This document shows positions 25,776 through 41,441 of a stretch of 52,748 bases of DNA, piece after piece. The stretch is from Escherichia phage LF82-19, in sequence record PV660457; one strand, given 5' to 3'. The stretch's first letter is position 1. Each line of letters starts with the position of its first letter. The notes beneath the pieces are model-generated. The model saw nothing but the letters and a program-made list of their open reading frames with translations, was not told the origin of the DNA and ran no database searches. The position numbers were made by a program, and so were the translations under genes.

Positions 25776-25790
25776 TAGCACGAATTGCTA
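25776..25790. promoter_or_regulatory. palindrome TAGCACGAATTGCTA downstream of tail-fiber -10
   Basis: lies between the extended -10 and the RBS of the tail fiber gene, opposite in orientation to early-promoter copies. Confidence 0.45.
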
Positions 25791-26842: not shown

Positions 26843-27301
26843 TCATTGATTAGCTTTTCGTGCTTTCAGTGTTTTCCAGGATGGTTGCTCCGGCTTGGTT
26901 TCTAACTCTTCCTTTCTCACCACGCGCAGCATGTGACGCTTTTTGCATCGGACTGTTAGCGGCTTGCCGTTGCCGTCGAATGACAGATCAGGGCGGCACC
27001 ACGACGCGCGGAAACCTCCGCCATTTCGTTTATATGCGTTGTGCGCCAGTTGCGCGCCTCGCGCTGAAATCATGCCGCGTTGCCGCCACTCATAAACAAC
27101 CTGAAGCGAAACGCGCAATTCTTTCGCCAGCTTTGCAGGTGAGCCGTAGAATTCAAGGATGGTATCTAATCTAGCCTTAAGCCCGGCCTTTACTTCGTCT
27201 CGTAAAACATAGTAACCTACTGGACGTTTTCGGCGCTTAGCGTCACTTCCGCGCTTCGTTCCATTGTTCCCATTAAGCGTGCGTTTATCTACGGTTTCCA
27301 T
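26843..27301 (-). CDS. HTH DNA-binding protein (Cro/YdaS-like, putative regulator)
   Basis: AKLAKELRVSLQVVYEWRQRG HTH-like segment; basic N- and C-termini; divergent from helicase promoter. Confidence 0.5.
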   Translation of the reverse strand: METVDKRTLNGNNGTKRGSDAKRRKRPVGYYVLRDEVKAGLKARLDTILEFYGSPAKLAKELRVSLQVVYEWRQRGMISARGAQLAHNAYKRNGGGFRASWCRPDLSFDGNGKPLTVRCKKRHMLRVVRKEELETKPEQPSWKTLKARKANQ

Positions 27302-27314
27302 AATTATTCCTCAA

Positions 27315-27356
27315 TAGCATTTTTTGTTAAAACTGGATTGTTGAGGCGTGTATTAT
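27315..27356 (+). promoter_or_regulatory. palindrome TAGCA-N5-TGTTA plus -10 TATTAT
   Basis: TAGCATTTTTTGTTA, 21 nt, TATTAT; upstream of helicase operon. Confidence 0.5.
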
Positions 27357-27393: not shown

Positions 27394-29463
27394 ATGAAAA
27401 TCAAGAGCATCAAGAAGCAGATTGAGGAGTTAGGCGAGGATAAGATCGCAGAGCTTCAAAAGAAATTCACTTTTGGTGACATTGTTCCTTATGCGTATCA
27501 GTGCGTCATGTACGACGAGATCGCAAAGCGCATTTCCGCATACAAACACCCATTCTTTGTTAAGGCTTCCGTGTCGGCTGGCAAAACAGTTGGGTTTGCC
27601 ATGGTGGCGGCGCGGTGCAGGGAAATGACTAGCGCAAAGTTTCCAAAGGGTTTATCAATGGCAATCCTCGCTCGCCAGGGTGAGATCGTATCTCAGGATA
27701 GCCAGGAGCTAACAAACTTCGGCGTGCCGAATAGCGTTTACTGCGCCGGGCTTGGTACTAAATCTGCATACTTCCCGATCGTCGTTGGCTCTGAGGGTTC
27801 AGTTGCAAACGGGCTTTTCAAGGCTCTCGGAGACTTCGCGCCAATGGTTGTCGGCATCGACGAATGTCACCAGGTGGATTGGGAAGACCTTGCAGACTCG
27901 ATCGAGAAGAACGAAAGCTATGAGGAAATGAGCAGACCAAAGGATGAGGCTTACATGATCAATGGCGAAGTAGTCGATCGCGGGTTGAAGATATCAAGCC
28001 TCATGGAAACCCTGGGAACAGTTGCACCAGGTGCCGGGCGCTCTCAGTACACGATAATCATTCGTGAGTTGCAGCGTCGATGCCTGGAAGTTCACGGAAA
28101 GGAACTACGCATATTCGGCATGACTGGTTCAGAGTTTCGCGGCACAACTCCGATCCTTGTTGAGAATATGAAACTCAAAGGCTTCTGGCGCGAGCAGGTA
28201 ACGAACATTGATACGAACTACCTCATTGAGTTTGGCTCGGTTGTTCCAACCGTCTTCGGCTCAACTGGCGGGTTAGGCTACGATCTGGAAGAGTTCAAAG
28301 CGTCAAGCGAAGATGGAACAAAAGACTTTGACGCGAAAGTAATGAAGAAGATGGAGGAGAAGATCCACAAGGATGCTTCCATGACGGCAAGAATTATGGC
28401 GGCGGTTGTGGAGGAAGCGAAGAAGCGAAACGGCGTTCTAATTACTTGCTCAGGGCAACGACACTGTAAAGAGGCGGCTAGTTACCTGCCTGAAGGCTCA
28501 ACGTATGCGATCATTACTGAGAAGACCGGAACGAAACAGCGCCAGCAAATCCTTGATGATGCAAACCAGGGAAAGATAAAGTACATCTTCCAGGTTGTGG
28601 CATTGACGACTGGCGTTAACGTGCCGTTTTGGGATTTCTCCGTGATACTCCGTAAGATTGGCTCTCTCACATTGCTGATACAGTTGCTTGGGCGCGGAAT
28701 GCGACTTTTAAAGGCGTGGCAAATCGCAATGGGGATGGTGAAGACAGATCACCTTGTTTGGGATTTTGCCGGAACTATGGACGAATTAGGCCAACTTTAC
28801 TTTGACCCGATTCTTGAGGAAGCTCAGTATCAACGCCGTTTCGACTCGAAGAAGGAGCCTAAAAAATGCCCTATTTGCGGTCATGAAAACAGTTTCTTTG
28901 CTCGTCGCTGTATCAGTCGGGATTTGAACGGAAACAGATGTGAGTATTTCTGGAAGTCGAGAACGTGCGAGGATCAGGTTGACGATCGAACCGGGAAAGT
29001 TATTGTGAAGGGTTGCGGTGTTCAAAATGATGTTGTAGCTCGAATCTGTAGGGGTTGTGATGCTAGCCTAACAGATCCCAACGCCAACTTAACCGGGAAG
29101 GCGTACACAAAAAACGACTGGTGCCAGGTTCTCAGCTTTGAGGTTGGGCTTACCAAAAACCAGACCGGGATCATTTATAAATATCGCTTGCGTGATATGC
29201 TCGGAGAGGAGTTTAACGCATACGAGAAGTTTTTCCCTGAGTCTCAGGCTCAGGTATGCCACACGATATGGAAAACAAAAGGCGTGCTTCCACACGTTCA
29301 CGATTCGAAAGTGGCAAAGCTTATGGCAGCATACAGGAGCGCGCGCCTGATCTTACAAAACGCGCACCACATCGCGCACCCGGTACGGGTTACGCATCGC
29401 AAAAACGCAAAGGGCGAAGATATCATTTCGCGCAAGGACTTCGGTCTTAATGAGGGCTTATGA
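27394..29463 (+). CDS. DExH-box SF2 helicase with C-terminal Cys-rich zinc-ribbon cluster
   Basis: Walker A SVSAGKT, DECH box, helicase C-terminal region, then CPICGH ... C ... C ... GCG ... CRGC cluster. Confidence 0.75.
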   Translation: MKIKSIKKQIEELGEDKIAELQKKFTFGDIVPYAYQCVMYDEIAKRISAYKHPFFVKASVSAGKTVGFAMVAARCREMTSAKFPKGLSMAILARQGEIVSQDSQELTNFGVPNSVYCAGLGTKSAYFPIVVGSEGSVANGLFKALGDFAPMVVGIDECHQVDWEDLADSIEKNESYEEMSRPKDEAYMINGEVVDRGLKISSLMETLGTVAPGAGRSQYTIIIRELQRRCLEVHGKELRIFGMTGSEFRGTTPILVENMKLKGFWREQVTNIDTNYLIEFGSVVPTVFGSTGGLGYDLEEFKASSEDGTKDFDAKVMKKMEEKIHKDASMTARIMAAVVEEAKKRNGVLITCSGQRHCKEAASYLPEGSTYAIITEKTGTKQRQQILDDANQGKIKYIFQVVALTTGVNVPFWDFSVILRKIGSLTLLIQLLGRGMRLLKAWQIAMGMVKTDHLVWDFAGTMDELGQLYFDPILEEAQYQRRFDSKKEPKKCPICGHENSFFARRCISRDLNGNRCEYFWKSRTCEDQVDDRTGKVIVKGCGVQNDVVARICRGCDASLTDPNANLTGKAYTKNDWCQVLSFEVGLTKNQTGIIYKYRLRDMLGEEFNAYEKFFPESQAQVCHTIWKTKGVLPHVHDSKVAKLMAAYRSARLILQNAHHIAHPVRVTHRKNAKGEDIISRKDFGLNEGL

Positions 29464-29879
29464 TTACTGACAAGGGCGATTATCTTGAATATTACACCCC
29501 TGATAAGGGGTGTACCCTGAAGGAAGAGACTCACCAGGTTAACGGCGTTTCGTGGCTAAAGTACCACTACCCAAACCTGATGTTTTGGCACACGGTCAAC
29601 GAGGGGCAGAAGCACATAAACACAGCCCTAAAAGATGAGCAAGCCGGGCTTAAGAAAGGTGTCAGCGACTTCGTATTTCTGATTGGTCATTTCGATCGGA
29701 AATATTGCTTTGGGGCTATTGAGCTGAAGCGCACCAACAAGAGCGGAAAGTACAAGGCATCACCAGTCAGTAAGGAGCAGAAAGCTTTCCTTCTCGGTGT
29801 GCGTGAACGTGGGGGGTTCGCGGCTGTGGCTTACGGATTCGAGGAGTTGAAGAAAGCCGTTGAGGACATGATGAAATAG
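29460..29879 (+). CDS. VRR-NUC-like nuclease
   Basis: 139 aa with D ... SDFVFL ... IELK PD-(D/E)xK-like motif; overlaps helicase stop. Confidence 0.55.
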   Translation: MITDKGDYLEYYTPDKGCTLKEETHQVNGVSWLKYHYPNLMFWHTVNEGQKHINTALKDEQAGLKKGVSDFVFLIGHFDRKYCFGAIELKRTNKSGKYKASPVSKEQKAFLLGVRERGGFAAVAYGFEELKKAVEDMMK

Positions 29880-29949: not shown

Positions 29950-30663
29950 ATGATTGACGAGAACGATAAAGACACAATGACGTTTGAAGAAATGGAGCAC
30001 GGCTTGTATTCAACTCGCGCACTGGTTGCCGGGTGCCACTACCAGCCAGTGAAGCCGGAAACGTACTATCGCGTTTCAGGGCATCGTTACGTTGGCAGCA
30101 AAACGCCTGACGTTGTGCGTGACTTGTGGGCAACCGATCGCGAATTGATTTCGTGGATGGAAGAGCGTTACGGAAAGTATGATATCGACGCAGCGGCAAG
30201 CGCGAATAATGCCGTGTGCGAAAAGTTCTACGACGAGCAACGTAACTGCCTGAAAATCTGGTGGGGAAAGAATAAGCACATCTGGCTTAACCCTCCGTAC
30301 TCACATCCTGATCCATTCGTGAAGAAGGCCATTGAGCAGATGGAGCATGACAACCAGATTGATATGCTTCTTCCTGGCGACAACTCAACGGCATGGTTTG
30401 CAGAGGCGCGCAAAAACGCTGCTGAGATCATCTGGATTGAGGCTGAGATCACAGAGATTGACCAGCAGGAATATTGCCGAACCGGGCGACTCGCTTTTAT
30501 TTCCGGCCTAACCGGAAAGCCAGTTGACGGCAACAACAAAGGGAGTGTGATTTTCATCATGCGCAAACTGAAAGAGGGTGAGACGCAACAAACACACTAT
30601 GTGAGCGTTTCTGAGATCTGCCCAGGCGTAAGCCGCAAGAAACCACGTAAACGGAGCGTTTAA
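29950..30663 (+). CDS. dam: DNA N6-adenine methyltransferase (phage Dam-type)
   Basis: NPPYS catalytic motif; 237 aa. Confidence 0.75.
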   Translation: MIDENDKDTMTFEEMEHGLYSTRALVAGCHYQPVKPETYYRVSGHRYVGSKTPDVVRDLWATDRELISWMEERYGKYDIDAAASANNAVCEKFYDEQRNCLKIWWGKNKHIWLNPPYSHPDPFVKKAIEQMEHDNQIDMLLPGDNSTAWFAEARKNAAEIIWIEAEITEIDQQEYCRTGRLAFISGLTGKPVDGNNKGSVIFIMRKLKEGETQQTHYVSVSEICPGVSRKKPRKRSV

Positions 30664-31663: not shown

Positions 31664-31746
31664 TGCGCTGTTTAATTCCTGTATTATTACCGCCGATTAT
31701 CGGTTTTATTATTATCTATCAACTAATTATGAGTTAAGGATTTGTT

Positions 31747-32883
31747 ATGTCACTGAAGAAAATCACCGACGAGCAGTTAAACGCCGAGCGAGAGTCGGGT
31801 AAAACTTACCGCCAGATCGCGGAAGAGTACGGAATGAACATACGCACCGTCGAGGCTCGCGGCGCACGCCTGGCTAAGAAAGGTTTCGGTCACGGTAACG
31901 GCGATGCATCGCGATTTGTTCCAGAAGGCTTCATGGTTAAGGGCACATCAACCATGCACCGCGCGAACGGAGAGGTTATCGTTAGCTGGACGAAAACCAA
32001 TCAGGATCATGAGAAGTTAGCCGCCATGCTTGAGCACGCGATCGAGGCGTTTTGCGTTGAGCTTCCACGCGCAGCCGCTACACCTTCCAACGTTGGTGAG
32101 GTGATGGAGAACCAGCTCGCGCTTTATCCTGTATTCGATCTGCATATCGGTGCAATGGCTCATAAGCATGAGTGCGGCGAGAACTACTCAACCGATATTG
32201 CCGAGAAGGTTTTGGGCGATTTCTTCAAGTACGCTGTGAACGTTGCGCCGAAGGCGAAGAAGGCGGTTGTGCTGGTTGGCGGTGACTACCTCCACTCTGA
32301 CGGCCTGGACGCTGTAACACCCGCAAGCGGTCACGTTCTGGATCAGGACTCACGTTACGCTAAGCTGGTTCACGTTGCCATTCGCTCACTCCGTCGCGGC
32401 GTTGCGCTTCTGCTTGATAAGCATGAAGAGATTGAGATCCAGATTATCGAAGGCAACCACGATCAGGCGGGTATGATTTGGCTACGCGCTGCAATGGCGG
32501 CATACTTCGAAGATGAGCCGCGCGTCACGGTTGACACATCGCCTATGATCCTTCACCGTACCAAGTGGGGCAAAACGCTGTTAGGCTACACTCACGGTCA
32601 CACGATGAAGAAAGCAGAAACCCGCCTCCAGGCGCTGGCTACTGACTTCCGTTCTGAGTTCGGCACGAGTGAATTCGTTTATACTCACTCAGGGCATTGG
32701 CATCACCAGACGCTTACAGAGCACACCTTAGGCATTGACGAGGTTCACGGTCAGTTAGGTGCCAAAGATGCGTATGCGGCTCGCGGTGGATGGCGCTCAT
32801 ATCGCCAGGCGGCGGTAATTGTCTATGATAAAGAATTTGGCGAGGTAGGCCGATTCGTTTATCGTCCTCAGATGAGCAAATAG
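31747..32883 (+). CDS. HTH domain fused to calcineurin-like metallophosphoesterase
   Basis: N-terminal TYRQIAEEYGMNIRTVEARGARL HTH; then DLHIG, GGDYLHSDG, EGNHD, GHTH, GHWHH metallophosphatase motifs. Confidence 0.6.
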   Translation: MSLKKITDEQLNAERESGKTYRQIAEEYGMNIRTVEARGARLAKKGFGHGNGDASRFVPEGFMVKGTSTMHRANGEVIVSWTKTNQDHEKLAAMLEHAIEAFCVELPRAAATPSNVGEVMENQLALYPVFDLHIGAMAHKHECGENYSTDIAEKVLGDFFKYAVNVAPKAKKAVVLVGGDYLHSDGLDAVTPASGHVLDQDSRYAKLVHVAIRSLRRGVALLLDKHEEIEIQIIEGNHDQAGMIWLRAAMAAYFEDEPRVTVDTSPMILHRTKWGKTLLGYTHGHTMKKAETRLQALATDFRSEFGTSEFVYTHSGHWHHQTLTEHTLGIDEVHGQLGAKDAYAARGGWRSYRQAAVIVYDKEFGEVGRFVYRPQMSK

Positions 32884-32923
32884 CACTTTTTGTTAAAAGC
32901 CGATCGCGTTGGTCGGCTATACT
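32881..32923 (+). promoter_or_regulatory. palindrome TAGCA-N5-TGTTA plus hairpin with TATACT
   Basis: TAG stop is the first half-site; 22-nt gap. Confidence 0.5.
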
Positions 32924-33057: not shown

Positions 33058-33231
33058 ATGAAAGTTAAATGTATTCGCAATGACTCTAAATCGCTCCCGT
33101 TCCATGTGAACCAGTTTTACTCTATCGGGTTCGATCACGGCGGCGGGAACTTCGAAATTTATGACGGTTGCGGCTCCTGTATTATTGCCCCGCTAAATGG
33201 GCATTATCTGGAATTCGTTATCGTCAAATAA
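33058..33231 (+). CDS. small protein, member of MKVKC family
   Basis: 57 aa starting MKVKCI ... FYSIG; not in ORF track. Confidence 0.4.
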   Translation: MKVKCIRNDSKSLPFHVNQFYSIGFDHGGGNFEIYDGCGSCIIAPLNGHYLEFVIVK

Positions 33232-41398: not shown

Positions 41399-41441
41399 AC
41401 TATAGCCGAAACATCCTGAGTGGTTTTAGCAAAAAGTGCTA
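41399..41441 (-). promoter_or_regulatory. palindrome TAGCA-N5-TGCTA plus -10 TATAGT
   Basis: 22-nt gap; leftmost promoter of the minus-strand early operon. Confidence 0.5.

Follow-up and report, generated by a model that had tools for sequence, protein, structure and literature searches.

What kind of enzyme does a phage make when it joins a helix-turn-helix (HTH) segment to a calcineurin-like metallophosphoesterase (MPE) domain in one polypeptide, and on which substrate might such an enzyme act? This question is raised by an open reading frame (ORF) of Escherichia phage LF82-19 (sequence record PV660457; the entire stretch of 52,748 nucleotides that was analysed is referred to here as the window) that extends from its ATG start codon through its stop codon at 31747..32883 on the + strand and encodes a protein of 378 amino acids, coordinates and length being exactly those given in an earlier sequence-only reading of this DNA. 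A Shine-Dalgarno-like AAGGA sequence is present at 31733..31737 (+ strand) with the ATG 7 nt downstream, and the strand opposite the ORF is closed by many stop codons. We refer to the gene, a homologue of gp16 (ST16) of phage T1, and to its product as HTH-MPE. Since its closest structural relatives are DP1, Mre11 and SbcD, and since motif II of its catalytic domain is of the Mre11-type GDxxH, a DNA-directed nuclease is the reading that the data support best, and we give it about an even chance of being correct.

The catalytic domain and its structural relatives

The calcineurin-like MPE domain occupies residues 120-378 (32104..32880; + strand, as are all motifs of the protein given below). We assessed its catalytic site in an alignment of 144 homologues whose mean identity to the LF82-19 protein is approximately 30%. 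The five-motif set DxH, GD, GNH(D/E), H and GHxH is present, and its ligands are either invariant or retained in at least 97% of these sequences. Motif I, VFD131LH133IG (32131..32151), aligns with SDWHLG of Mre11, and motif II, GGD180YLH183SD185, is followed by a conserved insert, VT191PxSGH196xLD199xD201xR203 (32275..32358 for both). Motif III (EGN237H238D239Q) lies at 32449..32466, motif IV (YTH283GH285T) at 32587..32604 and motif V (HSGH317WH319H) at 32686..32706. Residues D131, D180, N237, H238, H283 and H319 are found in all 144 homologues, H133 in 143, H183 in 141 and H317 in 140 of them, while D185 and D239 are kept in at least 90%. Besides H183 and D185 of motif II and the insert that follows, the residues E142, R259, D341 and R353 are conserved features of this family in particular. 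The motif set claimed by the sequence-only reading is thus complete, and its DxH, GNHD and GHxH elements stand as described; its GDxxD, however, needs to be replaced by GDxxH(x)D, the Mre11 type of motif II. A complete catalytic site under such strong constraint is what one would expect of an active enzyme.

The AlphaFold2 (AF2) model computed from the 144-sequence alignment (predicted local distance difference test [pLDDT] 93.4; predicted template modelling score [pTM] 0.80) contains the beta-sandwich fold of the MPE superfamily; an earlier model made with 20 close homologues (pLDDT 65.7) was discarded. In fold comparisons, the AF2 model scored 16.2 against the 3'-5' exonuclease DP1 of PolD, 14.8 against Mre11, 14.4 against SbcD and 14.0 against MJ0936, and lower against LpxH (13.4), YfcE (12.9), Rv0805 (12.3) and Ser/Thr phosphatase 5 (9.0). 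Foldseek is in agreement, with Mre11 and DP1 both at E ~5e-8. Judged from this model, the MPE domain appears to be an active enzyme and to belong to the nuclease branch, with a modest margin over the small-molecule phosphodiesterases.

Sequence comparisons point the same way at lower strength. When a profile of the MPE domain was compared with the PDB, Mre11 of T. maritima was the best sequence match, at an E value of 0.02 that is marginal and not significant by itself; the alignment spans motifs I, II, III and V and places DxH on DWH, GDFLH on GDLLH, GNHD on GNHD and GHxH on GHIH. There is also a weak NCBIfam match to the ligase-associated endonuclease PdeM (TIGR04123; E 0.0011, 18 bits against a family cut-off of 150 bits). 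A match to Azi29/AziU3 in a single-sequence search of the PDB (E 0.2) was at chance level and was dropped. The Pfam family PF00149 matches the LF82-19 protein with 15.2 bits (E 0.029), below its gathering score of 21.5, while one homologue (P0148) clears this score with 25.1 bits; the HTH-MPE family is a divergent branch that is poorly covered by Pfam.

By fold and by motif II, the modelled protein appears most like Mre11/SbcD or DP1, but it failed as a member of either group because it comes without a Rad50/SbcC or DP2 partner, without a capping domain and without an OB domain. The GDxxH motif II is common to HTH-MPE and the Mre11/SbcD nucleases (a group exemplified by T. maritima Mre11, 3qg5, and S. 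aureus SbcD, 7dog), whereas Mre11 lacks the HTH and beta-hairpin module. With archaeal DP1 (5ihe), only the MPE domain can be aligned (208 residues), and the DP1 OB-fold is not recognisable in HTH-MPE. Neither DP2 nor any other DNA polymerase is annotated in the genomes of LF82-10 or T1, and from these annotations we rejected both a Rad50-like and a DP2-like partner. PdeM, the 'nuclease MPE' of P. putida (6nvo), is a single-stranded DNA (ssDNA) endonuclease of ~200 amino acids that has no HTH; HTH-MPE is much larger. Nothing essential, by contrast, separates the LF82-19 protein from T1 gp16 and PHROG 704, with which it has family, length and three-part architecture in common.

One further phage enzyme of the superfamily, the lambda phosphatase NinI (lambda-PP), raises the question of whether HTH-MPE might be a protein Ser/Thr/Tyr phosphatase that acts on host proteins and is encoded upstream of Q and lysis genes. 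The positions match, in that both genes occupy a niche where the early or 'nin-like' region ends, beside a Q-like antiterminator and lysis genes, and one GenBank homologue of HTH-MPE carries the label serine/threonine phosphatase. NinI is, however, of another branch, the PPP type with the motifs GDxxDRG and GNHE, has no HTH and gives a low fold score. HTH-MPE has GDYLHSD as motif II and GNHD as motif III, is no close fold match to the PPP enzymes, and carries an HTH for which a protein phosphatase would have no obvious use. We therefore consider this function highly improbable.

The N-terminal module and the breadth of the family

Ahead of the MPE domain lies a three-helix HTH of the GerE/LuxR or sigma-70 region 4 type (residues 5-47; 31759..31887), which is recognised in the AF2 model, by Pfam and by profile comparison with the PDB. 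Its helices (residues 8-16, 21-27 and 32-44) are modelled at pLDDT 93-95 and are followed by a linker of lower confidence; the segment TYRQIAEEYGMNIRTVEARGARL, which the sequence-only reading had put forward as HTH-like, corresponds to residues 20-42. For the LF82-19 protein alone, the Pfam evidence is sub-threshold: Sigma70_r4_2 matches with E 0.007 over the full length and 0.0005 for residues 1-58, with a score of 20.1 bits against a cut-off of 25.7, and HTH_23 and HTH_24 are also among the matches to the N-terminus. At the level of the family, the assignment is solid. Among 134 family N-termini, Pfam detects HTH_1 in 46, HTH_28 in 36, HTH_8 in 35, Sigma70_r4_2 in 22 (best 6e-11) and GerE in 20 (best 1.5e-9), and a profile built from these 134 sequences matches RhlR (1.6e-6), GerE (2.5e-6) and NarL (4e-5) in the PDB, with DesR and a sigma factor in the same range of E values (1e-6 to 4e-5). 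The HTH is hence real and an integral part of the HTH-MPE family; structure prediction, Pfam and the PDB profile all place the N-terminus in a DNA-binding type of fold.

Between the HTH and the MPE domain, the AF2 secondary structure shows a family-specific beta-hairpin (residues 62-86, VPxGFxVKGxST...G...W) and a helix (residues 88-104), which together span residues 59-105 (31921..32061). Within the hairpin, G75 is present in 135 and W81 in 139 of the 144 aligned sequences. As modelled, this element could be a cap or could contact DNA.

The source of the gene is a T1-like phage of the Drexlerviridae. Its DNA is 100% identical in the Escherichia phages LF82-10, -11, -12 and -40 and 75-79% identical in many T1-like phages of Escherichia, Shigella and Klebsiella, and the encoded protein is 64% identical to the T1-type proteins. 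A homologue is found in 508 of 522 Drexlerviridae genomes, which makes HTH-MPE a persistent gene of this group (PMC13164509). In a tblastn search of 50,697 phage records, 2,037 (~4%) were found to hold a homologue, and 1,947 of the matches cover at least 80% of the protein. The holders include Drexlerviridae, Dhillonvirus, Kagunavirus/Guernseyvirinae, Jedunavirus, Autographiviridae (MR4, phiEa1H), N4-like Schitoviridae, and phages of Vibrio, Rhizobium, Campylobacter and Flavobacterium. Fifty-nine records named 'Campylobacter phage' carry a homologue; at least one of these, MG065671.1 ('Campylobacter phage A120'), is 47.5 kb in size and encodes a protein 59% identical to the T1-type protein, and since A120 has the look of a T1-like coliphage, its host assignment is perhaps wrong or the sample was contaminated.

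When 1.84 billion cluster representatives (50% identity) were searched with a profile, 5,304 clusters matched at E <=1e-3, of which 1,326 reach E <=1e-30. The matched proteins are mostly 370-420 amino acids long and their alignments begin near the N-terminus; a minority, for instance P0131 (311 amino acids), lacks this part. Given this breadth and the N-terminal alignment of most members, the combination of HTH and MPE is evidently the norm rather than a peculiarity of LF82-19, and the suggestion of the sequence-only reading that the fusion is out of the ordinary does not hold. In the homologue P0198 (482 amino acids), two tandem HTH regions (residues 21-60 and 101-142) precede the Metallophos/MPE domain, so that the HTH module appears to be open to duplication within the family.

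The architecture is the standard one of a large and already annotated phage family (T1 gp16, phrog_704), whose members also bear the name 'putative phosphoesterase'. The match to phrog_704 ('DNA repair exonuclease'; E 4.8e-149) aligns residues 4-377 with profile positions 2-389 of 390; the copy in LF82-10 is labelled "DNA repair exonuclease", and the TLS gene immediately before the holin gene is named 'proof-reading exonuclease' (PMC11447400). Because the exact sequence has a GenBank entry that names it a nuclease, and because thousands of phages share the architecture, both gene and fusion are already known. The nuclease label is a prediction, and the annotations mostly pass over the HTH, one homologue record being titled 'winged helix-turn-helix domain-containing protein'; the one merit of the sequence-only reading in this respect is the attention that it drew to the N-terminal HTH. 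Papers on Lamassu, Avs7 and PUA-Cal-HAD proved to be unrelated to HTH-MPE.

Gene neighbourhoods and the choice of substrate

HTH-MPE is the last gene of a block on the + strand. This block contains a superfamily 2 (SF2) helicase of 689 amino acids with a C-terminal Cys-rich, rubredoxin-like region (27394-29463, + strand), a VRR-NUC nuclease (29460-29879, + strand) and a Dam-type methyltransferase (29950-30663, + strand), which is followed by small ORFs and then by HTH-MPE. The helicase and VRR-NUC ORFs share 4 nt, an overlap that suggests translational coupling. Downstream of HTH-MPE are an SH3/DUF7244 gene (33058-33231; 57 amino acids, E 5e-27) and genes for holin, endolysin and spanin; stand-alone SH3 domains of the DUF7244 type are widespread in the lysis modules of Drexlerviridae (PMC13164509). 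ST16 of T1 is annotated at the syntenic place, where it follows the Dam methylase gene and small ORFs and precedes the lysis cassette.

Elsewhere, the neighbours of HTH-MPE are frequently genes for DNA and nucleotide metabolism. In Autographiviridae, the gene order is 5'-3' exonuclease, endonuclease VII, HTH-MPE, polynucleotide kinase (PNK)/phosphatase, deoxynucleoside monophosphate (dNMP) kinase and DNA ligase. Klebsiella phage phi1_146003 and Yersinia phage 526-2 have HTH-MPE, PNK and dNMP kinase in series, PNK lies two genes before HTH-MPE in Jedunavirus, and in an N4-like phage HTH-MPE comes after dCMP deaminase, dNTP pyrophosphohydrolase and ThyX. Where Drexlerviridae have no SH3 gene, HTH-MPE is most often followed directly by PNK and dNMP kinase (PMC13164509). 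In the Autographiviridae, in phi1_146003 and in the Yersinia phage, the string HTH-MPE, PNK-3'-phosphatase and dNMP kinase is that of loci L004 (5001-8288), L008 (5998-9200), L009 (30401-32629) and L013 (2989-5281). Together with the DNA ligase of the podoviruses, this string suggests a transferable module for end processing or nucleotide salvage. Other settings occur as well: HTH-MPE is flanked by lysis genes and the small terminase gene in Dhillonvirus, and in Kagunavirus it lies amid tail genes and adjoins a superinfection-immunity gene.

The recurrence of PNK brings into view the healing of nucleic-acid ends, in which the MPE domain would strip a 3'-phosphate, a 2',3'-cyclic phosphate, other blocks or short flaps from broken DNA or RNA and would cooperate with the polynucleotide kinase/3'-phosphatase encoded next to it, and with a ligase if there is one, to counter host nucleases. 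T4 Pnk/Rnl, bacterial Pnkp/Hen1 and the ligase-MPE (PdeM) repair modules would be the models for such a system, and a calcineurin-type MPE also forms the phosphoesterase module of Pnkp from Clostridium thermocellum. At least five phage groups of distinct taxonomy have a PNK/phosphatase gene beside or near HTH-MPE, and two have DNA ligase nearby. Yet the neighbouring PNK has a 3'-phosphatase of its own, PNK is not adjacent in T1 or in the LF82-19 window, and the closest folds are those of exonucleases and not those of end-healing modules resembling the lambda phosphatase. On these grounds, end healing appears unlikely.

The same neighbours could be cited for a phosphodiesterase acting on small molecules, either on cyclic or linear (oligo)nucleotide signals, with anti-CBASS, anti-Pycsar and anti-type III CRISPR activities as variants, or on components of the nucleotide pool; the HTH would then serve localisation or autoregulation. 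The sequence-only reading had mentioned a role in the degradation of cyclic nucleotides as conceivable. The presence of nucleotide-metabolism enzymes nearby fits such a function. Against it stand the retention of a DNA-binding-type domain throughout the family, the Mre11-type motif II and the status of the gene as a core rather than an accessory component of the Drexlerviridae; moreover, we found no similarity to characterised anti-defence phosphodiesterases. The PADLOC models gave no match either (0 families at E <=1), and for this reason a defence-system origin was dropped as well. Taken together, a small-molecule substrate seems quite unlikely.

A wider survey covered 137 environmental loci from IMG/VR, which represent 23 lineages at 60% identity and whose neighbouring genes were clustered by BLAST. 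Of the neighbour clusters, the five found most widely comprise four endolysin families and one holin; HNH endonuclease, dNMP kinase and Q-like antiterminator come next. A lysis cluster lies at most four genes away in at least one locus of 16 of the 23 lineages and in most loci of 11. A single conserved partner gene was not found among the 137 loci, which are highly mosaic and have only functional classes of neighbours in common; the lysis cassettes near HTH-MPE use non-homologous endolysins (phrog_7, 465, 2252) and holins (phrog_3427) in unrelated lineages. In some lambdoid-type contigs, HTH-MPE lies just upstream of the Q-like antiterminator gene, where lambda has ninI. The adjacency to lysis genes may reflect the place of the gene at the end of the early region. 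We read HTH-MPE as the last gene of an early, 'nin-like' DNA-metabolism region which, in siphoviruses, borders on the late regulator and lysis cassette; the repeated presence of PNK, dNMP kinase and ligase nearby is, in our view, the more informative functional signal. The DNA- and nucleotide-metabolism context in unrelated phage groups counts in favour of a nuclease.

As a DNA nuclease, HTH-MPE would be a two-metal phosphodiesterase (Mn2+/Mg2+-type) of the Mre11/PolD-DP1 branch that is joined by a flexible linker to a GerE/sigma-r4-like HTH. We infer that the HTH, perhaps with the conserved beta-hairpin, would keep the enzyme on duplex DNA while the MPE domain cleaves the phosphodiester backbone, either at its ends or where it is single-stranded, to yield 5'-dNMPs, either as a 3'-5' exonuclease or as an ssDNA endonuclease with Mre11/DP1-like chemistry. 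It would do so without a Rad50/SbcC ATPase partner and would count among the DNA-metabolism genes of the early or middle class. Its biological role might be to trim DNA ends for recombination-dependent replication, which in T1-like phages is of the RecE/Erf kind. Alternatively, or in addition, it might break down host DNA and so supply the PNK and dNMP-kinase salvage enzymes encoded nearby; T1-like phages take the host genome apart by a mechanism that is counted among the open questions (PMC11447400). Either of these specific roles is less probable than the nuclease activity itself.

Several observations weigh against a DNA nuclease. T1-like phages already encode RecE-like, VRR-NUC and HNH nucleases, so that the need for one more is not obvious. 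To the marginal sequence similarity with Mre11 has to be added that no counterpart of the capping domain and of the Rad50/SbcC-binding C-terminus of Mre11/SbcD could be identified in HTH-MPE, which in the AF2 model ends directly after the MPE domain, and that the annotations of LF82-10 and T1 list no gene for Rad50/SbcC. Binding of the HTH to DNA is predicted from homology, the commonest environmental neighbours are lysis and not DNA-metabolism genes, and our search of the literature found no biochemical or genetic work on any member of the HTH-MPE family.

Directional repeats and the lysis cassette

The sequence-only reading had named the HTH as a candidate binder of a palindrome, TAGCA-N5-TGCTA. 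There are 11 copies of this palindrome in the window, where 0.05 would be expected, and 10 in T1; Klebsiella phage phi1_146003 and Citrobacter phage Stevie carry it as well. It turned out to be the core of a directional box of ~19-21 nt, TAGCAC-N4-TTG(C/T)TAAA(A)C, of which the window holds 19 oriented copies. On the + strand these start at 25776, 27315, 29877, 32881, 42799, 43597, 44266, 45175, 45613, 47483, 48965, 49742 and 50756, and on the - strand at 41441, 40021, 39734, 38859, 37175 and 6043. Each copy is followed by a GC hairpin of variable sequence and conserved structure, in some cases with a T-run; at ~22 nt there is a -10-like hexamer, which is followed by CACCAACAAA or AACGAAACGAA. 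Such elements have been described as 21-nt direct repeats in TLS, T1 and Rtp, where their function is listed as an open question and no binder is known (PMC11447400), and they are annotated as repeat_region in phage Stevie.

Approximately half of the oriented copies read TGTTA instead of TGCTA, a change that breaks the DNA palindrome but would allow a G-U pair in RNA on the sense strand. Since only the sense strand can pair in this way, the repeat hints at an RNA or ssDNA hairpin, or at a directional promoter box, rather than at a DNA palindrome bound by a dimer. The copy at 29877 heads the operon that contains HTH-MPE. Another, TAGCACTTTTTGTTAAAAG (32881..32899, + strand), is a T1-type repeat that begins with the TAG stop codon of HTH-MPE and heads the SH3(DUF7244)-holin-endolysin-spanin block; from its position directly before this block, the lysis cassette appears to own a copy of the box.

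These findings bear on the proposal that HTH-MPE is a regulator of late or lysis genes, whose HTH would sit on promoter-proximal DNA (in T1-like phages the 21-nt repeats, ATAGCAC-N3-TTGnTAAAA) and whose MPE domain would act as a sensor, as a module that processes a co-factor or as one that nicks. The HTH is of a type typical of transcription activators, a repeat copy overlaps the stop codon and heads the lysis block, and the adjacency to lysis cassettes recurs in Drexlerviridae, in Dhillonvirus, in Vibrio, Rhizobium and Yersinia phages and in the environmental lineages counted above. The invariant catalytic residues, however, argue for an enzyme; the podovirus copies reside amid DNA-metabolism genes, and in the lambdoid-type contigs the Q-like antiterminator alongside already fills the role of a late regulator. 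The family is also present in phages without the repeats: Dhillonvirus phage welsh encodes a 46%-identical HTH-MPE with a similar recognition-helix scaffold (R-V--R---L-KKG) and has 0 copies. Furthermore, in the four Drexlerviridae compared (T1, LF82-10, phi1_146003 and Stevie), the repeat is constant while three positions of the recognition helix vary. The directional, half non-palindromic nature of the repeats speaks in the same sense, and an alternative binder is at hand. We accordingly regard a role as late-gene regulator as decidedly unlikely.

This alternative candidate is a Cro-like 'transcriptional regulator' of 152 amino acids. It is a homologue of T1 gp23 in which a Cro/YdaS-like HTH is weakly recognisable and the N-terminus is very basic, and it is encoded at 26843-27301 on the - strand, divergently from the helicase gene, with the repeat copy at 27315 in the intergenic region. 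It is an equally plausible candidate for binding the repeats. The HTH helices of the gp23-type proteins likewise vary among the four Drexlerviridae with the constant repeat. On this sequence evidence, the HTH of HTH-MPE is weakly disfavoured as the binder of TAGCA-N5-TGCTA. A combined reading, in which HTH-MPE recognises the 21-nt repeats that head most early and lysis units and couples this recognition to a phosphodiesterase reaction, we consider very unlikely. If true, it would mean site-directed nicking or processing, or an enzymatic control of the lysis switch, and it would define a new class of enzyme-linked regulators positioned before lysis cassettes in many phage groups.

By itself, HTH-MPE is an ordinary and catalogued phage gene, and its value is that of a pointer to open questions in the biology of T1. 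Should the favoured interpretation as a DNA nuclease be correct, an Mre11/DP1-like enzyme that is tethered by an HTH and operates without Rad50 would represent a compact new type of phage DNA-processing enzyme.

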